Below the pieces are notes generated by a model. It did not search any database. It saw only the letters and a program-made list of their open reading frames with translations, and was not told the DNA's origin. Made by a program: the position numbers and the translations under genes. A DNA stretch of 64,000 nt from an uncultured Gammaproteobacteria bacterium (GTDB lineage: Bacteria > Patescibacteriota > Microgenomatia > Levybacterales > UBA12049): positions 69,235-133,234 of the forward strand of contig CAYOZJ010000002.1 of assembly GCA_964408485.1 (NCBI GenBank), read 5' to 3'. This document shows, piece after piece, positions 8,025-63,745 of the stretch. Position 1 is the stretch's first letter; the number at the start of each line of letters is the position of its first letter.

Positions 8025-8222
8025 TGCATTCATAGCAGTATGCAGTAAGAATTATGGGCATATTGCGTAGAGCATAAAGCATAATTCATATATTTATACA
8101 TTGGGCAAACACCGTGTAATTCGGTGGAAGTGCCGCTACTGTAAATCCAGAAAACCATGTATAAATCATTCTCGAGCAAGAACGTTTTTGGGCACGTCCT
8201 TCTCGAGAGAGAGGGATTTTTT

Positions 8223-14681: not shown

Positions 14682-14754
14682 GGGTCGGTAGCTCAGTTGG
14701 TTAGAGCACTTGTCTTATACACAGGCTGTCGGAGGTTCGAGTCCTCCCCGACCC
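14682..14754 (+). tRNA. tRNA-Ile (anticodon UAU)
   Basis: Cloverleaf folded by hand: acceptor GGGTCGG/CCGACCC, D-arm GCTC..GAGC, anticodon stem CTTGT/ACAGG with loop CTTATAC (U33, anticodon TAT, A37), T-arm GGAGG TTCGAGT CCTCC, discriminator A. No encoded CCA. Confidence 0.75.
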
Positions 14755-14760
14755 ACTGGA

Positions 14761-21835: not shown

Positions 21836-22347
21836 AATTATATTATACTATAAGTTTTAAAGTTGTCAATAAGGGAGTAAAAGGAGCTTGTTTATAACTT
21901 GTGTTGCGGGGCTAGGAGTTGCGCCTAGCCTGTGAGATTATGCATCTGTAATCTCTGATTACTCAGAGTGTCGGACTATATCTTCCAGCCAGTGGCTGGT
22001 TCAGCGTATAGTCTCTACGGGTTCTCACCAAGTGGCGAGTCTTCCCTCGGTATTGTCCTCCGTCAACTGACAGATAGGAGTCCACCGATATAGCTGAATT
22101 CAATTCTCATTATTGCTAATAAGATGGCCCATTATGTTAAGCCTCACGTGCACTGTACACTACCCCGCGTATGAGCATAGTATAGCATTATTTCATTGAT
22201 TTAGCCAGCCTCAATTGGTATACTTAGGGTACTTTCTAGTCACCTGAACTTGATTCAGGATCTCATTTTAAGAATGAGATCCTTCGTTTTACTCAGAATG
22301 ACAGGAGAAGATTGCCACGGAACATTCGTTCCTCGCAATGACGATAC
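21836..22347. other. ~500-bp ORF-free, hairpin-rich region (candidate structured RNA and/or repeat array)
   Basis: No ORF of 60 aa or more on either strand. Several perfect hairpins: GGCTAGGAGTTGCGCCTAGCC, CCAGCCAGTGGCTGG, GATTATGCATCTGTAATC, GATCTCATTTTAAGAATGAGATC. The 3' end carries family repeats (CTCAGAATGACAGG, GATTGCCACG...CCTCGCAATGACG) abutting tRNA. Confidence 0.3.
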
Positions 22348-22420
22348 GCCAGGGTAGCTCAGTGGTTAGAGCACCACATTCATAACGTGGCGGTCGGCAG
22401 TCCGACTCTGCCCCCTGGTA
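22348..22420 (+). tRNA. tRNA with CAU anticodon (Met, or Ile2 if lysidinylated)
   Basis: GCCAGGGTAGCTCAGTGGTTAGAGCACCAC... anticodon loop TTCATAA (CAT). The acceptor has a G1-U72 wobble and the T-loop TCCGACT is atypical (C55), so I am less certain it is functional. Confidence 0.55.
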
Positions 22421-23253: not shown

Positions 23254-24657
23254 ATGAAGATAAGCGAATTACATACAAAACGAATTGCTATTTTGGGTCT
23301 TGGTGTAGAGGGATTAGCAACGGCACAATATTTTTTAGAACATAAGATTGCCTTTTCCATTATTGATGAAAAGTCATTTACCGAACTTTCTGAAGGAGGG
23401 GATTTAAAGAATGCTTTAGAAAAACTTAAAGAGAATACTATTCCACTCGTTTTGGGAGAAGTTCCCACAAAAGAGCAGCTAGCTCAGTACGATGTACTTG
23501 TAAGAGCACCTGGAATCTCTCTGAAGAAAGATTATCTGCGAGGATTTAGCGGTAGCATTACTTCTGCAACTAAGCTCTTTTTTGACAATTGCCCTGGGAA
23601 AATTATTGGTGTAACAGGGACAAAAGGAAAGGGAACAACCAGCACATTGATCTATGAAATGCTTAAAAGTGCAGGAATCGACGCATATCTTGGCGGCAAC
23701 ATAGGACTGCCTCCATTATCATTTTTGGATACAGTAGATGATCAATCTATTGTTGTTCTGGAGCTTTCTAGTTTTCAATTAGAAGACCTTCAAAAAAGTC
23801 CCCACATTAGTGTCATGCTTATGGTAACGCAGGAACACTTAGACGGTTTTGGAAATCAAAATTATCACAGCTCAATTCGTGAGTATGTTGATGCAAAAAG
23901 AAATATTGTCAGATTCCAAACAGCAGATGATATGGCAATTCTTAATACAGACTATCCTGCCACTACAGAATCAGCTGGTGTTACCTCGGCTCAGGTTGCG
24001 TGGGTGAGTAGATACAAGCCTGTTGGAACAGGGTGCTTTGTGAGAGACAATGAGGTAATTCTTCGCAGCAATAATCAGGAGACCAAAGTAATTGACGCAG
24101 CTGATATTTTTCTTCCTGGAGGACATAATTTAGAAAATATCTGTGCAGCAACTATGGCTGCGTATTTTGCAGGCGTTGATGTTGCTGAAATTGCATCAGT
24201 TCTCAAGACCTTTAAAGGCTTAGAACACCGGTTGGAGTTGGTTAGGGAGTTGGATGGTGTTAGATATTATGACGATTCTTTCTCAACGGTTCCTGAGACT
24301 GCTATTGCTGCAATTCAAGCATTTAGTAATCCAGAAATTTTAATCTTGGGGGGGTCAAGCAAGAAATCAGATTTTACTCAGCTTGGAAAGCTTATTAGCG
24401 AAACACCAAATATAAAAGCAATTATTGGGATTGGAGTAGAATGGCCAGTCATAGAATCAAGAATCAAGAATCAAGAATCAAGAATAAAAATAGTGACAGG
24501 GTTAACAACCATGAAAGATATTGTTGAGACAGTCAGGAAATTAAGTGAGCCAGGAGATGTTGTGCTTCTTTCTCCAGCCTGCGCATCATTTGGGATGTTT
24601 AAGAATTACAAAGACAGAGGCAATCAGTTTAAAGAGCAAGTAAACAAATTAACCTAA
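23254..24657 (+). CDS. murD: UDP-N-acetylmuramoylalanine--D-glutamate ligase (carries in-frame repeat insertion)
   Basis: ILGLGVEGLATAQYF plus GVTGTKGKGTTSTLIYEML. Contains an inserted ESRIKNQESRIKI peptide from a GAATCAA tandem repeat. Confidence 0.9.
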   Translation: MKISELHTKRIAILGLGVEGLATAQYFLEHKIAFSIIDEKSFTELSEGGDLKNALEKLKENTIPLVLGEVPTKEQLAQYDVLVRAPGISLKKDYLRGFSGSITSATKLFFDNCPGKIIGVTGTKGKGTTSTLIYEMLKSAGIDAYLGGNIGLPPLSFLDTVDDQSIVVLELSSFQLEDLQKSPHISVMLMVTQEHLDGFGNQNYHSSIREYVDAKRNIVRFQTADDMAILNTDYPATTESAGVTSAQVAWVSRYKPVGTGCFVRDNEVILRSNNQETKVIDAADIFLPGGHNLENICAATMAAYFAGVDVAEIASVLKTFKGLEHRLELVRELDGVRYYDDSFSTVPETAIAAIQAFSNPEILILGGSSKKSDFTQLGKLISETPNIKAIIGIGVEWPVIESRIKNQESRIKIVTGLTTMKDIVETVRKLSEPGDVVLLSPACASFGMFKNYKDRGNQFKEQVNKLT

Positions 24658-32752: not shown

Positions 32753-33658
32753 ATGCGAAAATTACAGCCTGAAAGAGTAAGAGAATTCCGCAGAAAAATA
32801 CTTTCCTGGTATAAAAAGAATAAGCGTGATTTACCTTGGCGCCATCCTTCGCTAAAGCTTCGGAATGGTAAAGGACGTGATCCTTATGCAATTCTTGTTT
32901 CAGAAGTAATGCTTCAACAAACACAAGTGAGTCGAGTCATTGAAAAATATAATGAGTGGATAAAAGCATTTCCAACAATTAGGAAATTGGCAAAAGCATC
33001 TTTTAGAGATATCTTGTCTCGTTGGTCAGGGCTTGGATACAACAGGCGTGCTTTATATCTGCAGCAGCTTGCCCAGGATATTGTGAAAAATCACCATGGA
33101 AAGTTTCCGCAGAATGAAAAAGAGCTACAAAAGCTTCCTGGCATTGGGGAATATACAGCTAGAGCAATTCTTTGTTTTGCATTTAATGAGCAAGTTGCTG
33201 TAGTGGATACAAATATCAGAAAAGTCATACTTACAAATTTTTTCTCTGAGCGAGCGAGGCGAGTCGAAGAGCCTTCGACAGGCTCAGGCAAAAAAGGTTC
33301 TGGGCAAGCCAGAATGACAGATAAAGAAATCCAAGAAATTGCAAATCAGCTTCTTCCAAAAGGAAAGGCCTATGAGTGGAATCAGGCGCTTATGGACTAT
33401 GCATCGAGTGAGTTAAAGCAGGAAAAAATACCAATTCCTAAGCAGTCAAAATTTAAAGATTCAGATAGGTATTATCGTGGAGAGATTTTGCGTATGCTTC
33501 TTACTAATCCTGCCTATTCATTTGAAGAGGTACAAAAACATTTTGTAGAAATCAAAAAAGAAATTTCTTCGCAGCGCCTTGAGAGAATAGTTCAAACATT
33601 ATATAAGGATAGATTTATTGAATATACAAAATCCGTTATAGTTCTGAGAAAGAATTAA
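32753..33658 (+). CDS. HhH-GPD DNA glycosylase (MutY/Nth family) with in-frame repeat insertion
   Basis: WYKKNKRDLPWR, PYAILVSEVMLQQTQV and LPGIGEYTARAILCFAFNEQVAVVDTNIRKV (HhH-GPD). Contains inserted FFSERARRVEEPSTGSGKKGSGQARMTDK. Confidence 0.8.
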   Translation: MRKLQPERVREFRRKILSWYKKNKRDLPWRHPSLKLRNGKGRDPYAILVSEVMLQQTQVSRVIEKYNEWIKAFPTIRKLAKASFRDILSRWSGLGYNRRALYLQQLAQDIVKNHHGKFPQNEKELQKLPGIGEYTARAILCFAFNEQVAVVDTNIRKVILTNFFSERARRVEEPSTGSGKKGSGQARMTDKEIQEIANQLLPKGKAYEWNQALMDYASSELKQEKIPIPKQSKFKDSDRYYRGEILRMLLTNPAYSFEEVQKHFVEIKKEISSQRLERIVQTLYKDRFIEYTKSVIVLRKN

Positions 33659-36294: not shown

Positions 36295-37320
36295 TTGTCA
36301 TGGTATACTACAAAGTACATGAAAAAGTTACTTCTGATTGATGGAAATGCCATTTTACACCGTGCATTTCATGCCTATCCACCAGTATTTTCTGACAAAG
36401 AGGGTAATCCTACAAATGCTATTTATGGCTTTTATGCAATGCTTTTAAAAGTTATGGAGGAGGTAAAACCAGATTTACTCACCATTTGCTTTGATCAAGG
36501 TGCGCCGACTTTTCGCATGAATATGTATGCTGGGTATCATGCCAATAGGCCAAAAATGCAGGACACATTGGGAGTACAGGTCGAGCCCTTGCGTGAGTCT
36601 TTGCGTAAAATAGGAATTCCCGTTGAAGCAATCGATGGATATGAAGCAGATGATTTAATTGGGACATTATCTCATCAAGCGTCAAGCGTAAGGCGTAAAG
36701 GGGAAAGTTTGGAAACAATAATCCTAACAGGTGACAGGGATCTTTTGCAGTTAATTAACGAGCATACCAAAGTTCTTATGCCAATAACAGGAATTACGAA
36801 GTCTGTCTTAATGGATGAAGGAGCAGTTGAGGCAAAATACGGCATAAAGGCAAGTCAGGTAATTGATTACAAAGCCTTAGTTGGCGACCCGTCTGATAAC
36901 TATCCAGGTGTTGGGGGAATAGGTCCTAAAACAGCGGCAACACTTCTTAAAGAGTGGGAAACATTGGAGAATTTGTATACCCATTTGGGAGATATAAAAC
37001 CTGAGTTGAGTCAAAAATTAGCTCAAGATGCAGAGCAGGCAATGCTATGCAAGAAGTTGGCAACCATTCAGCTAGACGTACCTGTTCATTTAGATATAAA
37101 GAAAGCAGATGTAGACAATTTTTCTCTGGAAAAGTTTTTGGATATTTTCGAGCACTTCAATATTCACTCATTGGTTAAGAGGCTTAGTCTAGCGCTAGGA
37201 AGTGAAGCACCTATAACACGAAGCGAGACGAAGCAATCTAGTTTAAAGAAAGATTCTGGACAAGCCAGAATGACGAAAGAAGAAAAGAAGAAAGAGGATA
37301 GTCAACTAGAGCTACTTTAG
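36295..37320 (+). CDS. 5'-3' exonuclease (stand-alone Pol I 5'-nuclease/FEN domain) with repeat-derived C-terminal tail
   Basis: LLLIDGNAILHRAFHA and GDRDLLQL, H3TH region. The C-terminal ~40 aa (SETKQSSLKKDSGQARMTKEEKKKED) derive from repeat DNA. Confidence 0.85.
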   Translation: MSWYTTKYMKKLLLIDGNAILHRAFHAYPPVFSDKEGNPTNAIYGFYAMLLKVMEEVKPDLLTICFDQGAPTFRMNMYAGYHANRPKMQDTLGVQVEPLRESLRKIGIPVEAIDGYEADDLIGTLSHQASSVRRKGESLETIILTGDRDLLQLINEHTKVLMPITGITKSVLMDEGAVEAKYGIKASQVIDYKALVGDPSDNYPGVGGIGPKTAATLLKEWETLENLYTHLGDIKPELSQKLAQDAEQAMLCKKLATIQLDVPVHLDIKKADVDNFSLEKFLDIFEHFNIHSLVKRLSLALGSEAPITRSETKQSSLKKDSGQARMTKEEKKKEDSQLELL

Positions 37321-39446: not shown

Positions 39447-40727
39447 ATGCCTAGAATAGCCCTGGTTCACGATTATATTAAAGAATACGGTGGAGCGGAA
39501 AGGGTACTAGAGACTTTGCATGAAATGTATCCCAATGCACCTGTATTTACCCTAGTATATTGTCCAAAATTCTTAGGACCACATAAAGATAGATTTAAGA
39601 ATTGGGATATCCGCACATCATTTCTTCAGTCTATCCCTTTTAAAGAAAAATTTATTAGCATCTTTCGGCTTTTTGCCCCATTTATTTTTCCATTTTTCAA
39701 CTTTGCTGGGTACGATGTAATCATTGTAAGCGCAACAGGGGCATATAGTCCCAACGTAGTTGGGACAAGAGGTAAGAAGGAAGAGGTAAGAAGTAAGGAA
39801 AGTGACCATACGCCATACGCCATACGCCATACGCCGTATCACATCTGCTACTGCCACACGCCGCCCAGATATTTGTATGGATACGCAACAGCTAGAGAAC
39901 TAAAAAAGAATTCTCTTATTCGATTATTGGCAGAATGGATGAATAAATGGCTTGTGCGAGTAGACAAAAAGTCCAGTAAAAATGTGGATTTGTATATTGC
40001 CAATTCAGAAGAAGTACGAGCACGAATTAAGAAATTTTATAACAAAGATGCAATTGTTGTGTATCCACCAGTTGATGTTCCTTCAGTGTCATTCCTGCGA
40101 AGGCAGGAATCCAGGAAAGGAACTGGATCCCGGATCGGAGTCCGGGATGACAATTTTTATCTAGCAGGCGGGCGTCTTGCCAGGCCAAAGCATTTCGATT
40201 TAATCATCAAGGTAGCAAATGAATTAAAGTTGTCCCTCAAGATTTTTGGGAAAGGATTTGCAGGGTATGGAGAAGAGCTGTATGATTTGGCAAATAGACT
40301 ACAGCAAGCAGACTACAGTAAAGAAGCTGTAGTCGGTAGTCCGAAAGCTGTAAGCGTTATTACGTTTTTGGGAGAAGTAACAGATGAAGAAAAAATACAT
40401 CTTATGTCCGGTGCTAAAGCATTTATTATGAGTAGTGAAGATGAGGATTTTGGCATAACACCAGTTGAGGCAATGGGGGTTGGGACACCGGTGATTGCAT
40501 ATAAGAGTGGTGGACTTAAAGAAACAGTTATTGATGGCAAGACAGGAGTATTTTTTGACATGTTATCTGCAGAAAGTCTAATTGGGGCAATAAAGAAGTT
40601 TGAAGCCCTTCGACAAGCTCAGGGTAAAAGACTGTCTGAGAATTGTATTGCGCAAGCGCAAAAATTTAGCAAAGAGAACTTTGAAAAAGGAATTCGTTCT
40701 GTCATCTCTAAAATCTTGTCATCCTGA
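39447..40727 (+). CDS. glycosyltransferase family 4 (GT1-fold) with multiple in-frame repeat insertions
   Basis: MPRIALVHDYIKEYGGAERV N-terminus and C-terminal EDFGITPVEAMGVGTPVIA (E-x7-E region). Inserted peptides EEVRSKESDHTPYAIRHTPYH and SFLRRQESRKGTGSRIGVRDD. The stop lies inside a GTCATCCTGAG repeat. Confidence 0.8.
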   Translation: MPRIALVHDYIKEYGGAERVLETLHEMYPNAPVFTLVYCPKFLGPHKDRFKNWDIRTSFLQSIPFKEKFISIFRLFAPFIFPFFNFAGYDVIIVSATGAYSPNVVGTRGKKEEVRSKESDHTPYAIRHTPYHICYCHTPPRYLYGYATARELKKNSLIRLLAEWMNKWLVRVDKKSSKNVDLYIANSEEVRARIKKFYNKDAIVVYPPVDVPSVSFLRRQESRKGTGSRIGVRDDNFYLAGGRLARPKHFDLIIKVANELKLSLKIFGKGFAGYGEELYDLANRLQQADYSKEAVVGSPKAVSVITFLGEVTDEEKIHLMSGAKAFIMSSEDEDFGITPVEAMGVGTPVIAYKSGGLKETVIDGKTGVFFDMLSAESLIGAIKKFEALRQAQGKRLSENCIAQAQKFSKENFEKGIRSVISKILSS

Positions 40728-40942
40728 GCTTGCGAAGGATATATTCTTCACTTTGTTTAGAATGACAAAGGAAAAAGATTTCTCACTTCGTTCGAAATGA
40801 CACTCTTCTTACTTATTTCTAACCTCCTCTTACACAATATTAATTGTAATTTCATTTAAGAGTTCTATCCTGTCAGGAAGCTGTTGGGGAATCGTTGGCC
40901 ATAGGTCAAGTTAAAGATTCTCTGCAGGAATATAATTAGCTT

Positions 40943-42776: not shown

Positions 42777-43997
42777 ATGATCCTCAGGTCAATTCTTCTT
42801 CAGCATTTTCGCAATTATACCCAGGAAAAGTTTGATTTTTCAGAAACTCTCACTCTTATTATTGGAGTAAATACTGCCGGTAAAACCAATCTTTCTGAGG
42901 CAATATATTTACTTGCAACAGGGAAGAGTTTTAAGGCAGGTAATGATACATTTATGATTGCTTTTGGACAAGAGATTGCAAGGGTGGGAGGATTGCTGGA
43001 AGATGTCATCCCCGACCAGATCGGGGATCCAGGAAAAGAACTGGATTCCCGCTTTCGCGGGAATGACAGTAAAAAAAAGGATGACGGTTTGGACAAGACT
43101 AAAATAGAAGTAGTTATCGCCAGTCCTCAGGCAACTGGAGGGAGATTTAGCAAGAAATTTCTTATAAATGGTGTTGGAAAATCGCGGAATAGTTTGCGAG
43201 GTATGCTCCCAATTGTCCTTTTCCGGCCTGAAGAATTGGACATTATTATTGATGGACCAAGTCTCAGGCGCGCATTTCTTAATGAAGTACTTGAGCAGGC
43301 AGATAAAGAATATGCCCAAGCATTATCTGTCTTCGAACGGTCTCTTAGGCAGCGCAATGCGCTTCTTCGTATAGCTCAGGAGACTGGAAAACGAAATAGT
43401 GAGCAATTTGATTATTGGGACGAGCTTCTTATTGAGAGTGGGCAGACAATTACACAAAAGCGTGAAGAATTTTTGGTATTTATCAATTCATCCACTCATG
43501 ATATTTTTCCTTTACAGACTTTTTTCGATAAGAGTATTATTTCTCGCGAACGGTTAGATGGATATGAGATGGCAGAAGTCGGGGCAGGGGTGACCCTTGT
43601 AGGGCCTCACAGAGATGATTTCTTTGTGAACATGGAATATCCTGGTTTTAATCCCAACCCTCATCCCAGCTCGCCGAGGCAAGCTGACCTTCTCCCAAAA
43701 GGAGAAGGAGAACAAGGTGATATCCACTACGTGGATATACGATTTTTCGGTTCGAGGGGGCAGCAGAGACTTGCAGTGCTCCAGTTAAAAATGCTCCAAA
43801 TACAGTATTTGGAAAAGAAACTAGGAGTATTGCCACTTCTTATCTTGGATGATATTTTTTCTGAATTAGATAGTAACCATATTCAGCTTGTTTTGGATAA
43901 CGTGAAAGGATGCCAAATCATTCTAACCACAACGCATAGGGAGTTTATTCCACAAAAGGTATTACGTGAGGCTAGTGTGGTAGAATTAGAGCGATAA
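42777..43997 (+). CDS. recF: DNA replication and repair protein RecF with in-frame palindromic-element insertions
   Basis: MILRSILLQHFRNY, Walker A GVNTAGKTNLSEAIY and C-terminal LILDDIFSELD. Inserted VIPDQIGDPGKELDSRFRGNDSKKKDDG. Confidence 0.85.
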   Translation: MILRSILLQHFRNYTQEKFDFSETLTLIIGVNTAGKTNLSEAIYLLATGKSFKAGNDTFMIAFGQEIARVGGLLEDVIPDQIGDPGKELDSRFRGNDSKKKDDGLDKTKIEVVIASPQATGGRFSKKFLINGVGKSRNSLRGMLPIVLFRPEELDIIIDGPSLRRAFLNEVLEQADKEYAQALSVFERSLRQRNALLRIAQETGKRNSEQFDYWDELLIESGQTITQKREEFLVFINSSTHDIFPLQTFFDKSIISRERLDGYEMAEVGAGVTLVGPHRDDFFVNMEYPGFNPNPHPSSPRQADLLPKGEGEQGDIHYVDIRFFGSRGQQRLAVLQLKMLQIQYLEKKLGVLPLLILDDIFSELDSNHIQLVLDNVKGCQIILTTTHREFIPQKVLREASVVELER

Positions 43998-49874: not shown

Positions 49875-51374
49875 ATGGTTGATGTTGTTGCAGATTTACA
49901 TCTGCATTCTCGTTTCTCCAGAGCGGTTAGTCCTCAAATGACTCCTCCCACAATGGCACAATTTGGAGACCAGAAAGGGATAGATCTTTTGGCAACAGGA
50001 GACTGGACACATCCGGTATGGTTTCGGGAAATCAGCAACTTTCTCACAGAAGCAGAAGAAGGACTGTATAAAATCAAGAATCCAACTCCCCAAAATGAAA
50101 AGACACGATTTCTTCTTTCTGTAGAAATTGCCTCTATTTATTCCCAAGGAGGGAAGGGAAGAAGGATTCACAACTTAGTATTTGTTCCATCCTTCGAAGT
50201 GGCAGCAAAAGTAAATAAAGAGCTGATAAAACGCGGATTTAATTTATCTTCTGACGGGAGGCCAATCATAGGATTTTCCTCAAAGAATTTACTTTCACTT
50301 CTCCTTGAAGTAGATGAGCGGTGTCTTCTTATTCCCGCTCATGTCTGGACGCCATGGTTTGGCATTTACGGACAGATGTCTGGGTTTCAAAGTCTTGCGG
50401 AAGCATTTGAAGAATTAGCACCAAAGATTTATGGAATAGAGACAGGTCTTTCAAGTGATCCGGAGATGAATTGGCAAGTTGATGAGCTAAAGACAAGGTC
50501 AATTCTTAGCTTTTCTGATGCACATTCTCCTGCGAAAATGGGGCGAGAAGCAACGGTTTTTCGCTTGGACAGCTTGTCTTATGAGAATATTCGTCAAGCA
50601 ATAATGGCGCCAAGCCTTCGTTCCGTCATTGCGAGCAAAGCGAAGCAATCTAATATAAATAAGGAGAAGATTGCCACGTCGCAAGCTCCTCGCAATGACA
50701 ATGTTAATAAAGTACTCTACACCATAGAATTTTATCCAGAAGAGGGGAAGTACCATTATTCAGGCCATAGAAATTGCGGAATTACCATGACGCCACAAGA
50801 GCAAGCAGCAGCGCATAATATTTGTCCTGTATGTAAAAGGTCTCTTACCGATGGGGTTATGAGACGTGTTCAGGAACTCGTAGAAAAGGACCCTTCGGCA
50901 TCGGTTCGGCAAGCTCACGACGAGGGCTCAGGGCAAGGTCCCTTTGGAAGTCATACGCCTAATAAAAGTGGCCTTGTCTGGATAACAGACCCTAAAGAAA
51001 ATCGTCCACCATTTGTCAAAATAGTACCGCTCCAGGAAATAATTAGTGAGGCAATTGGGAGTCCTTTTGCAAGCCCGAAGGTAAAAGTAATCTTCGATAT
51101 GCTCTGTAAAGACGGACTCTCTGAATTTAATGTACTCCTTAAATTGCCCTTACCAGATATTGAGCGAATAAGTCTTAGTATTACTTCAAAAGAATTTGCT
51201 GAAAAAATTACTGATGGAATAAAGAAAGTACGTGCAGAGCAAATTGTGATTAAGCCAGGATACGACGGTGTATTTGGGGTAGTAAAGATTTGGAGTGATG
51301 AGAATGACAGTGAAAACCCTTCGACTTCGCTCAGGGAAAAAGATACTGAAGAGCAGATTGGATTAGAGTTTTAG
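49875..51374 (+). CDS. Endonuclease Q (EndoQ)-like PHP-domain nuclease with zinc finger
   Basis: DLHLHSRFSRAVSPQMT PHP N-terminus, LIPAHVWTPWFGIYG, SFSDAHSPAKMGREAT, KYHYSGHRNCGI and CPVCKRSL zinc finger, RPPFVKIVPLQEII. All are collinear with archaeal EndoQ as I recall it. Confidence 0.7.
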   Translation: MVDVVADLHLHSRFSRAVSPQMTPPTMAQFGDQKGIDLLATGDWTHPVWFREISNFLTEAEEGLYKIKNPTPQNEKTRFLLSVEIASIYSQGGKGRRIHNLVFVPSFEVAAKVNKELIKRGFNLSSDGRPIIGFSSKNLLSLLLEVDERCLLIPAHVWTPWFGIYGQMSGFQSLAEAFEELAPKIYGIETGLSSDPEMNWQVDELKTRSILSFSDAHSPAKMGREATVFRLDSLSYENIRQAIMAPSLRSVIASKAKQSNINKEKIATSQAPRNDNVNKVLYTIEFYPEEGKYHYSGHRNCGITMTPQEQAAAHNICPVCKRSLTDGVMRRVQELVEKDPSASVRQAHDEGSGQGPFGSHTPNKSGLVWITDPKENRPPFVKIVPLQEIISEAIGSPFASPKVKVIFDMLCKDGLSEFNVLLKLPLPDIERISLSITSKEFAEKITDGIKKVRAEQIVIKPGYDGVFGVVKIWSDENDSENPSTSLREKDTEEQIGLEF

Positions 51375-51950: not shown

Positions 51951-52002
51951 TTTGTTTATAAACAAATAAAAAAAGGATACGGTGAAAACCTGTGTCCTTT
52001 TT

Positions 52003-52235
52003 TGTCATTTCGAACAAAGCGAGAAATCTCATTCAAGTATTTTTCTTCTTCTGTACTTTTGTGCCGACAAAAGATACCAAAAACTCTCGCCAAGGTCTTG
52101 TTCGAGCTTTCAAAAAAGAGCTCCAAAGCTAAAAGTACGCAGTTCGCTTTCACTTTCTTTACGCTTTTATGCCCTTTTTCTTATGCACTCACTGCAAATT
52201 GGCGAATAAGAACCATTTACATGAGGAGTATAATA
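52003..52235 (+). repeat. ~200-bp dispersed repeat copy A (upstream of pth)
   Basis: Near-identical core to 63530..63745 (..CTCTCGCCA.G..CTTGTT..AGCTTTCAAAAAAGAGCT.CAAAGCTAAAAGTACGCAGTTCGCTTTCACTTTCTT.ACGCTTTT..). Confidence 0.7.
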
Positions 52236-52241
52236 AGACAT

Positions 52242-52856
52242 ATGAAATTAATAGTGGGACTCGGTAATCCAGGCGAAAAGTATGAGAAAACAAGACATAA
52301 CATAGGATTTATGGCATTGGATAGTTTCCTCAAAGATTTTGAGTCTACAAAAGATACGGTTTGGACAGATAGTAAAAAATTCAAATCAGATATTGCAGAA
52401 ATTGCGTGGCAACGACAAACTGATGGTGACAAATCTCATGACCCTGAAAAAGTTATTTTAGCCAAGCCTAAAACATATATGAATGATTCAGGTCTAGCTG
52501 TTAAATTACTGATAGATTTTTACAAGGTACAGCCAGAAGATCTGTGGATACTGCATGACGATGTGGATTTTCCTGCAGGATCTATGCGAATTCGATTAGG
52601 AGGAGCATCAGCAGGGCACAGAGGGATCATGTCTATTATTGAGCATTTGGGTACAGACCAATTTTATCGCTTTCGCTTAGGCATTGGGAGGCCGGGGGAA
52701 AGTGAACACAGTGGAGTAAGTCATTATGTACTGGATACCTTTAACCATGAAGACCACAGTAATGTAAGGGAACTTCTTAAGCGGACAAGCAAGGCTATTG
52801 AGCTAGGACTAGAAAAAGATTTAACCGCTGCAATGAACAAATATAACTCCAAATAG
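52242..52856 (+). CDS. pth: peptidyl-tRNA hydrolase
   Basis: MKLIVGLGNPGEKYEKTRHNIGF N-terminus. The track ORF extends upstream through the repeat, so 52242 is preferred. Confidence 0.85.
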   Translation: MKLIVGLGNPGEKYEKTRHNIGFMALDSFLKDFESTKDTVWTDSKKFKSDIAEIAWQRQTDGDKSHDPEKVILAKPKTYMNDSGLAVKLLIDFYKVQPEDLWILHDDVDFPAGSMRIRLGGASAGHRGIMSIIEHLGTDQFYRFRLGIGRPGESEHSGVSHYVLDTFNHEDHSNVRELLKRTSKAIELGLEKDLTAAMNKYNSK

Positions 52857-53858: not shown

Positions 53859-53930
53859 TTGGGTCATCCTGGCTTGTCCAGGATCTAGATTCTGGATGCG
53901 CTTTGCTTACCAGAATGACAGGAGAATTTT

Positions 53931-57687: not shown

Positions 57688-57817
57688 GTGTCATCCTGAG
57701 CAAGCTAGAGGATATATTCTTTCCCGACTCGGGACTAGGTTCGCAGAACCGTTGCACACGTTCAGAATGACAATAGGACTGGATCCCGGATCGGAGTCCG
57801 GGATGACAAATTAATAT

Positions 57818-63529: not shown

Positions 63530-63745
63530 ATTGTCATTTCGAACAAAATGAGAAATCTTTTCTTTTTAACTTCTCTTGTACCGACAAGAGAAGCAGAAGC
63601 TCTCGCCAGGCCTTGTTCCAGCTTTCAAAAAAGAGCTTCAAAGCTAAAAGTACGCAGTTCGCTTTCACTTTCTTAACGCTTTTCCGCTCTTTTTCTCTCG
63701 CAGTCACAGCGGATTGGCGAATAAAGACCGCGGAAAATTTACCTC
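63530..63745 (+). repeat. ~200-bp dispersed repeat copy B (upstream of partial ORF at 63780)
   Basis: See copy A at 52003..52235. Confidence 0.7.

Follow-up and report, generated by a model that had tools for sequence, protein, structure and literature searches.

Two inverted hairpin repeats of the SRM/NTS/dRS3 class form a probable in-frame passenger in a RecF loop of a Patescibacteria-type genome

The hairpin repeats that most closely resemble the element considered here are known from Neisseria, for which Chenal et al. (2025) described the 28-nt Neisseria Transformation Sequence (NTS), CGTCATTCCCGCGMAVGCGGGAATCYRG, which contains dRS3 (ATTCCC-N8-GGGAAT), and additionally defined the degenerate Ssn-related motif (SRM) (PMC11893778). 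In Neisseria and Wolbachia, repeats of this class are recognised by small GIY-YIG single-strand-DNA nucleases (Ssn) (PMC11893778). SsnA, a 94-aa GIY-YIG protein, binds the hairpin only as single-stranded DNA, not as RNA, and its cleavage site lies a few nucleotides upstream; cleavage depends most on the trinucleotide 5' of the palindrome (GTC), and binding on the C immediately 3' of it (PMC11893778). An IS (insertion sequence)-like layout, NTS–ssnA–NTS, was raised by the Ssn authors as a hypothesis only, and how SRM repeats spread was a question they left open (PMC11893778). NIMEs of Neisseria are 50–150-bp repeat units bracketed by dRS3 that form intergenic arrays (PMC1797815), and the Rickettsia palindromic elements (RPEs) constitute Rickettsia-specific consensus families of about 100–150 bp (PMC10969869). 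Here, we analysed a 64-kb stretch (64,000 nt, the window) of contig CAYOZJ010000002.1 from a Patescibacteria-type metagenome-assembled genome (MAG), in which the recF gene contains a 65-nt element with the termini TGTCAT and ATGACA. With a probability of roughly 80%, we consider this segment to represent two inverted copies of the SRM/NTS/dRS3-class hairpin repeat, carried as a tolerated passenger in a loop and not as a feature of RecF. This repeat class had already been described, which was not recognised in a preliminary description of the same DNA. The main text of the Ssn paper makes no mention of Patescibacteria or of intragenic copies (PMC11893778), and neither SRM doublets inside genes of the candidate phyla radiation (CPR) nor a recurrent hot spot in the RecF loop is described in the searchable literature. 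A literature search for the corresponding artefact peptides (VIPAKAGIQ and others) yielded nothing relevant; it was a search for the DNA string that led to the Ssn paper. The locus comprises the following features.

42777..43997, plus strand: recF (406 aa), host of the insertion; from the open reading frame (ORF), Pfam SMC_N, homologue names and the AlphaFold2 (AF2) model
42998..43078, plus strand: the extra 81 nt (27 codons) compared to the empty site of the closest orthologue; from a MAFFT alignment of the window with L111/P0002, boundaries ambiguous by a few bases
43004..43068, no strand: inverted doublet of two hairpin units, TGTCAT...ATGACA, 65 nt; from sequence, folding, SRM pattern and covariance model
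43004..43032, plus strand: left unit, T-GTC-ATCCCCGA-CCAGA-TCGGGGAT-C-CAG, palindrome at 43008-43028; SRM pattern match, covariance model 37.1 bits
43033..43040, no strand: spacer GAAAAGAA, 8 nt, between the CCAG and CTGG tails, with which it forms the 'core' of the preliminary description
43041..43068, minus strand: right unit, T-GTC-ATTCCCGC-GAAA-GCGGGAAT-C-CAG, palindrome at 43045-43064; SRM pattern match, 36.5 bits

The 406-aa ORF 42777..43997 matches Pfam SMC_N over residues 3-391 (6.8e-18), and its closest homologues are named RecF and originate from Patescibacteria, Levybacteria and Saccharimonadales MAGs. From GTCAT to ATGAC (43005-43067), the doublet comprises 63 nt or 21 codons (RecF codons 77-97) which encode VIPDQIGDPGKELDSRFRGND in the context ...LLED-VIPDQIGDPGKELDSRFRGND-SKKK.... 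Both palindromes are perfect: the left one, ATCCCCGA/TCGGGGAT, forms an 8-bp stem with a 5-nt loop and the right one, ATTCCCGC/GCGGGAAT, an 8-bp stem with a 4-nt loop. The G+C content of the hairpin units is 57-63%, compared to 39% for the window. The termini TGTCAT and ATGACA are the 5' GTC flanks of two facing units, and the core consists of the CCAG tails of these units facing each other across the 8-nt spacer. The preliminary description had placed the element at 43004-43070. Its start was correct, whereas its 66-nt string, which has one exact match (43004-43069, plus strand; shuffles expect 0), ends at 43069 and the symmetric element at 43068. The two different arm palindromes and the in-frame insertion between conserved RecF segments, which it had likewise claimed, were both borne out, the latter by the 21 codons, the orthologue alignment and the short loop of most orthologues (see below). 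The right arm is also the source of the VIPAKAGIQ artefact peptide, as proposed, since its minus-strand translation gives VIPAKAGIQ. The doublet is open in four of the six frames, the sole frame-closing stop being the TGA within ATGACA, and the reading frame of RecF is kept by the whole 81-nt insertion, that is, the doublet and about 16 further bases. As the doublet itself measures 65 nt in RecF and 66 nt in a GT4 glycosyltransferase gene of the same window, its length is not fixed at a multiple of three, indicating that frame preservation belongs to the surviving insertion events and not to the element.

Both arms fit the published SRM pattern, HGTCWYN(0-2)YYVSBRHN(0-5)WNVSBRGN(0-2)RNCYNB (43004-43032 on the plus strand, 43041-68 on the minus strand). 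The window contains four matches to this pattern, while 100 dinucleotide shuffles gave 0.16 on average. The right arm (tGTCATTCCCGCGAAAGCGGGAATCCAG) has a single mismatch to the NTS consensus, at the first base; 43045-43064 (ATTCCC GCTTTCGC GGGAAT) is an exact fit to dRS3. The left arm (ATCCCC...) does not fit dRS3 and is an SRM, not an NTS. In a PLSDB search, the right arm was identical in 30/30 nt to NTS copies of N. gonorrhoeae, which were found in this plasmid database because it lists two 2.17-Mb N. gonorrhoeae chromosomes (NZ_CP119142.1 and NZ_CP119140.1) as plasmids. Near-identical copies of the right arm were present in Legionella, Azospirillum, Cupriavidus and sphingomonad replicons. 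The RecF element thus displays the features by which SRM, NTS and dRS3 are defined in sequence, and its putative connection to Ssn is one of sequence class. This Patescibacteria (CPR) genome contains multiple copies of the class, which is found in many bacterial phyla.

The published SRM/NTS repeats have the same unit anatomy (5' GTC, an AT...AT palindrome and a C directly after) and are likewise multi-copy and clustered. The present copies differ in that they reside in a Patescibacteria-type MAG, are arranged as heterologous inverted doublets whose junction is 16 nt long and lie in frame in housekeeping genes. In addition, the Ssn nuclease (single-domain GIY-YIG, cd10448) is often repeat-flanked, whereas none was seen in the 64 kb examined here. 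With the dRS3/NIME repeats of Neisseria, the RecF doublet shares the dRS3 fit of its right arm; however, its palindromes are only 16 nt apart and intragenic, and the doublet is not a NIME. RPEs resemble it in being small palindromic repeats that occur in frame in unrelated housekeeping genes at fold-compatible sites, adding a peptide and leaving the gene intact. The RecF element, with 65 nt and two SRM units, is set apart from RPEs by size, not by sequence comparison; by analogy, the insertion may be regarded as an RPE-like phenomenon, of which the searchable literature contains no description for Patescibacteria, although the element is, by size, not an RPE. The REP/BIME/REPIN repeats (RAYT, IS200/IS605-like) are also short hairpins with a conserved 5' motif, in solo and inverted-doublet forms, without target-site duplication and with a presumed action as single-stranded DNA. 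In contrast to the present units, their 5' motif is GTAG and not (T)GTC-AT, REPINs have near-identical arms that form one long hairpin where the RecF doublet has heterologous arms and two hairpins, and their enzyme class is HUH/Y1, compared to GIY-YIG in the literature on SRM. A MITE would have terminal inverted repeats and a target-site duplication; here, the 6-nt inverted termini are the GTC flanks, no target-site duplication was found in comparisons of filled with empty sites, and no direct repeat flanks any copy.

Two small RNAs (sRNAs) bear on the possibility that the element acts at the level of RNA, as a structured mRNA or embedded small RNA with an effect on translation or stability, or by ribosome skipping. 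In Rfam, sub-threshold matches were obtained to RF02625, WsnRNA46 (Wolbachia sRNA 46; 27.9 bits, E about 6e-4, gathering threshold 65.3), with the layout GUCAUCC...GGGAUCCAG / CUGGAUUCC...GGAUGAC, and to RF02748, FtrB (Francisella sRNA B; 19 bits, gathering threshold 66), which contains an NTS-like unit. In its ends and junctions (GUCAUCC...GGGAUCCAGAAAA ... CUGGAUUCC...GGAUGAC), the WsnRNA46 consensus agrees with the RecF element, but its centre is about 47 nucleotides longer. Together with the strong predicted fold, these matches would be compatible with a function in RNA. However, neither score comes close to the gathering thresholds of 65-66 bits, RNA is not bound by SsnA, in contrast to single-stranded DNA (PMC11893778), copies occur on both strands relative to genes and between genes, and the frame is kept and stops are avoided as expected of a translated segment. 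We therefore regard an RNA-level action as unlikely. As single-stranded DNA, the doublet is predicted to fold with -20.2 kcal/mol (z = -5.8 compared to shuffles). A cloverleaf or tRNA-like reading of the fold was rejected, as the three-hairpin fold with its closing stem equals the two units and the pairing of their CCAG tails.

The AF2 model of the window RecF, calculated from a 40-sequence alignment, had a mean predicted local distance difference test (pLDDT) score of 86.4 and a predicted TM score (pTM) of 0.83, and Foldseek comparison with crystal structures yielded 5z67 (TM 0.83) and 2o5v (TM 0.77). In the model, the insert is located between strands 67-75 and 107-115 in a loop with a pLDDT of about 50, and the only structured part of it is a three-residue helical turn at residues 79-81; the HMMER alignment to 5z67 breaks at residues 75/128. 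The model thus places the insert at the tip of a beta-hairpin loop of the RecF ATPase head with the predicted fold kept intact, consistent with a surface loop, the location that the preliminary description had put up for checking, and the about 27 extra residues are probably disordered. We measured this loop between the conserved ARVxG strand and the K(L/I)EVV strand in the 120 best RecF homologues. It comprises at most 11 residues in 78 and at least 17 residues in 34 of them, and appears to tolerate 20-40 extra residues. A co-option of the insert for a lineage-specific function of RecF, e.g. as a new interaction surface, would be in line with the intact hairpins, the kept reading frame and the 34 expanded loops. 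It is nevertheless quite unlikely: the inserted sequences are unrelated between orthologues, the low pLDDT and the single helical turn provide little structure, and it is the DNA palindrome and not the peptide that is conserved, a nested 30-nt insert altering the peptide in the orthologue at locus L001.

The comparison of RecF orthologues favours a lineage-specific insertion over ancestral sequence. The closest listed orthologue (P0002, L111; 67-77% identity) has a short loop, and at the DNA level the window has 81 additional nucleotides. Among the orthologues, the loop expansions are unrelated to one another, and 10 display the V-I…N-D (or …AMT) signature expected of GTCAT…ATGAC. Doublets of this form were verified at the DNA level in at least five RecF loci (the window, L001, L082, L083 and L084), where they differ in their arms (ATCCCCGA/ATTCCCGC, ATTGCGAG-type and ATCTCGAG-type) and, by 0-7 codons, in their left junctions. 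The gene order around recF is conserved in the loci compared (Vut_1–GT4–…–AA_kinase–RecF–Carb_kinase–DUF5654–Fic), indicating that these recF genes are orthologous. The RecF sequences of P0009 (L083 5001-6122) and P0018 (L086 1378-2466) are 85% identical including gaps and near-identical outside two indels: P0009 has a GTCAT…ATGAC doublet, P0018 has a PLRQGYEGQAG-type insert in a helix-loop region, and each is devoid of the insertion of the other. This reciprocal pattern indicates recent gain or loss. At the empty site of P0018, AATGACA is already present at the position of the right terminus of the P0009 doublet.

The converse, an ancestral RecF loop that was lost in most lineages, draws on two observations. 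The about 54% identical RecF of P0072 (L001) carries the same two arms in the same loop, with a further 30-nt palindrome nested in the left loop, and many orthologues have N-D at the right edge of the loop, possibly as a remnant of the element. The preliminary description had held that presence of the segment in RecF of distant relatives would speak against an insertion, and L001 is, literally, one such case. However, neither element nor peptide occurs in the 71 listed orthologues that are closer than P0072, the loop is short in 78 of the 120 homologues, the junctions vary among the five verified loci, and the same DNA is found in unrelated genes, in intergenic DNA and in Neisseria. Furthermore, the element is 88% identical between L001 and the window while the flanking recF DNA is 57-64% identical, which favours separate acquisition or a strong constraint on the element sequence over an ancestral RecF segment; that a sequence constraint on the element exists is indicated by the cross-phylum identity with the Neisseria copies. 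An ancestral loop is thus very unlikely. Finally, a repeat-induced chimeric join is extremely improbable, since, although the genome is a MAG and the element a multi-copy repeat, RecF sequence and gene order continue correctly on both sides and comparable in-frame doublets occur in independent assemblies from several projects (L001, L082-L084, L090, L110).

Further copies of the repeat are distributed over the window.

40087..40152, no strand: sister doublet with arms ATTCCTGC and ATCCCGGA, in frame in a GT4 glycosyltransferase (SFLRRQESRKGTGSRIGVRDD)
53862..53920, no strand: intergenic doublet with ATCCTGG and ATTCTGG arms, 59 nt, with a different, shorter spacer; shares termini and unit design
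57779..57808, minus strand: intergenic solo unit, identical to the right arm of 40087, adjoining a different GTCAT...ATGACA element at 57689-57770
37249..37275, minus strand: solo unit with ATTCTGG stem, within the C-terminal tail of a 5'-3' exonuclease ORF
50624..50700, no strand: doublet of the ATTGCGAG...GCAAT subfamily, the same subfamily that fills the RecF loop of P0009 (L083)

Eight units in the window have a common layout, (T)GTC - AT-stem - loop - stem-AT - C, usually followed by CAG. The repeating module is this single hairpin unit, as solo copies occur at 57779-57808 and 37249-37275. The modular family put forward in the preliminary description therefore holds with regard to swappable stems between conserved flanks, but not as an assembly of ends, core and arms. 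Regarding the relatives it had listed at 40087, 53863 and 57774, the first (40087-40152) shares with 43004 the termini and the core (TCCAGGAAAGGAACTGGAT vs TCCAGGAAAAGAACTGGAT) and has other arm palindromes, the second (53862-53920) shares termini and unit design but not the spacer, and the third is the single unit 57779-57808. The core proved to be rare in its exact form. The exact core ATCCAGGAAANGAACTGGAT is also found in 40087-40152 and, in diverged form, in the RecF copy of L001; in 596 Gb of species-representative genomes, a collection without the source genome, it had 16 matches, only one of which was a true doublet (L090), while 15 were without arms and are probably due to chance. Other doublets have other spacers (53862-53920, L013, L012 and L110). 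In all of the eight doublets examined, the two arms differ in stem sequence, indicating that each arm folds alone and that no long common hairpin is formed. A looser hairpin finder (GTCA[CT], stem of at least 7 bp, 3' C required) yielded seven matches in the window, compared to 0.03 expected from 200 dinucleotide shuffles.

Several copies are, as in RecF, part of coding sequences. The doublet at 40087-40152 is located in frame in a variable loop of the GT4 glycosyltransferase, and single units occur in the ORFs of the 5'-3' exonuclease and of an endonuclease III-like protein, in both cases C-terminal to the Pfam domains. The SecA of L090, a MAG of an uncultured bacterium whose gene content is CPR-like, has a doublet with the same core in frame near its C-terminus (VIPAKAGIQEKNWIPGQARND). 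A further doublet, with a 23-nt spacer, is in frame in the annotated ileS of the Sphingopyxis indica plasmid pMC4 (L110; RHPRESGDP…LDSRFRGND), demonstrating that intragenic doublets are not confined to CPR. When two doublet peptides were combined into a 42-aa query for a peptide census, the only matches were 12 short hypothetical ORFs and not even RecF was recovered, the word index being unsuited to this purpose.

Some observations weigh against interpreting the RecF segment as an inserted SRM-class passenger. The recurrence of the same arms in the same loop at L001, with 54% RecF identity, can be read as an old insertion kept by selection. The closest orthologue with an empty site is only 67-77% identical, which limits the precision of the boundaries and of the call on target duplication. 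At empty sites, AATGAC or TGAC is already found at the position of the right terminus, which may reflect a target preference or the scar of earlier elements. Among 15 distinct units from the window and related loci, GTC, the AT...AT ends and the 3' C are invariant, 97.5% of stem cells are paired and six of the eight pairs have changed on both sides, but these units were preselected by a filter (GTC, hairpin and C), so that the pairing percentage is inflated and partly circular. On the supporting side, the covariance model that the preliminary description had proposed, built here from the 15 units, recovered units outside the training set, namely 53885-53920, both Sphingopyxis arms (L110), four units of L090 and the left arm of L001 with its 30-nt loop insertion. 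Lastly, a search of the 64-kb window and of related CPR loci (about 570 kb), conducted by phmmer with two probes and by regular expression, revealed no GIY-YIG/Ssn gene; the link to Ssn is accordingly one of sequence class.

With the insertion reading as the basis, the following course of events may be envisaged. One doublet with about 16 further bases (81 nt) would have been inserted into the beta-hairpin loop of RecF and, owing to a net length that is a multiple of three and to four of six open frames, would be translated as about 27 extra residues. The copies may have spread via a single-strand-DNA process with an Ssn-type nuclease or via recombination between copies, and the inserted peptide would be without function. 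In a far broader scenario, which we consider doubtful, SRM doublets would be a mobile module found across bacteria that has entered the same permissive loops of housekeeping proteins time and again (RecF, SecA, IleRS and glycosyltransferases; Patescibacteria and Proteobacteria), moved as single-stranded DNA by Ssn-type GIY-YIG nucleases. Three features are consistent with targeting as opposed to selection alone: a GA|TGTCAT junction shared by two RecF orthologues whose arms differ, the AATGAC/TGAC that empty sites already contain, and the insertion nested in the L001 element. If the scenario were true, Ssn would drive a transposition-like system that has so far gone unrecognised, and protein loops in reduced genomes would have a general source of variation. 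Presence or absence of the doublet between close RecF genes provides a practical system for how SRM repeats spread.

Through this assignment, the VIPAKAGIQ/SFPRKRES/RFRGND 'junk peptides' familiar from CPR and other genomes can be traced to a defined repeat class for which an enzyme partner is known. The class is present in Patescibacteria and appears to lengthen essential proteins without breaking them, which matters for annotation, orthologue alignment and length-based quality checks of MAG proteins.

Concerning GIY-YIG genes elsewhere, a 108-aa GIY-YIG gene of Novosphingobium aromaticivorans plasmid pNL2 (L109 1050-1665) is located between inverted GTC-GCCCCGTG-CTTGA-CACGGGGC hairpins. The arrangement hairpin–nuclease–hairpin is IS-like, and its GTCGC start is missed by the published SRM pattern. 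The gene looks like a member of the right (Ssn) family but is too distant to serve as a probe for CPR homologues. A YhbQ probe against PLSDB retrieved UPF0213-type GIY-YIG genes in N. gonorrhoeae and Legionella, which had no SRM flanks and are probably not ssnA.

The RecF gene of the window contains a second in-frame insertion at 43641-43727, of about 26 aa (NPNPHPSSPRQADLLPKGEGEQGD), which consists of two other hairpins, CAGCTCGCC..GGCAAGCTG and CCTTCTCC-CAAAA-GGAGAAGG. The corresponding loop is expanded in only 3 of the 120 orthologues, P0020 having a similar PHPNPLLRGEG peptide, and has a low pLDDT in the model (about residues 289-316). The second hairpin recurs in diverged form at 33350-33368 and 23443-23461. 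A second GATGAC, at 43079-43084 and 11 nt 3' of the RecF doublet, aligns with TTGAC of the closest empty site.

The GT4 protein (window 39447-40727) has 426 aa, compared to 366-388 aa in syntenic orthologues. It has further lineage-specific in-frame inserts (…EVRSKESDHTPYAIRHTPY…, …QQADYSKEAVVGSPKAVS…, …LRQAQGKR…), and the stop codon of the gene is part of the following element (start at 40717). In L090 (252-2600 and 6442-7920), the SecA doublet precedes the C-terminal zinc motif, and a GT4 homologue of 492 aa harbours several SRM-type and other repeat inserts (…ELDSRFRGNDREIASAQTSRND…, …LRQGYGGQAG…). The unit in the endonuclease III-like (HhH-GPD) ORF, at 33293-33319, is weak (17.6 bits, ATTCTGG stem) and is situated beside other short G+C-rich repeats.

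Other repeats of the window share parts of this design. The elements at 40717-40802 and 57689-57770 (GTCATCCTGAGC…GAAGGAT … AGAATGACA, VILSEAKDL/LRMT peptide type) have the same termini and imperfect stems and, with 12-15 bits in the unit model, are not clear SRMs. A weak-stem subfamily, GTCATTTCGAAC(A/G)AA(GC/AT/GT)GAGAAATCT, has three copies (40774-40802, 52003-52031 and 63532-63560), that at 52003 being located upstream of the Pth domain in ORF 51951-52853. Three GTCA-/-ATGAC units, one with a CTGAA stem and one of the ATTGC type, are clustered at 22238-22343, directly upstream of the tRNA at 22348-22420. A further tRNA is present at 14682-14755, and an AdoCbl-II riboswitch at 8093-8165 scored 44.3 bits, above the Rfam gathering threshold.

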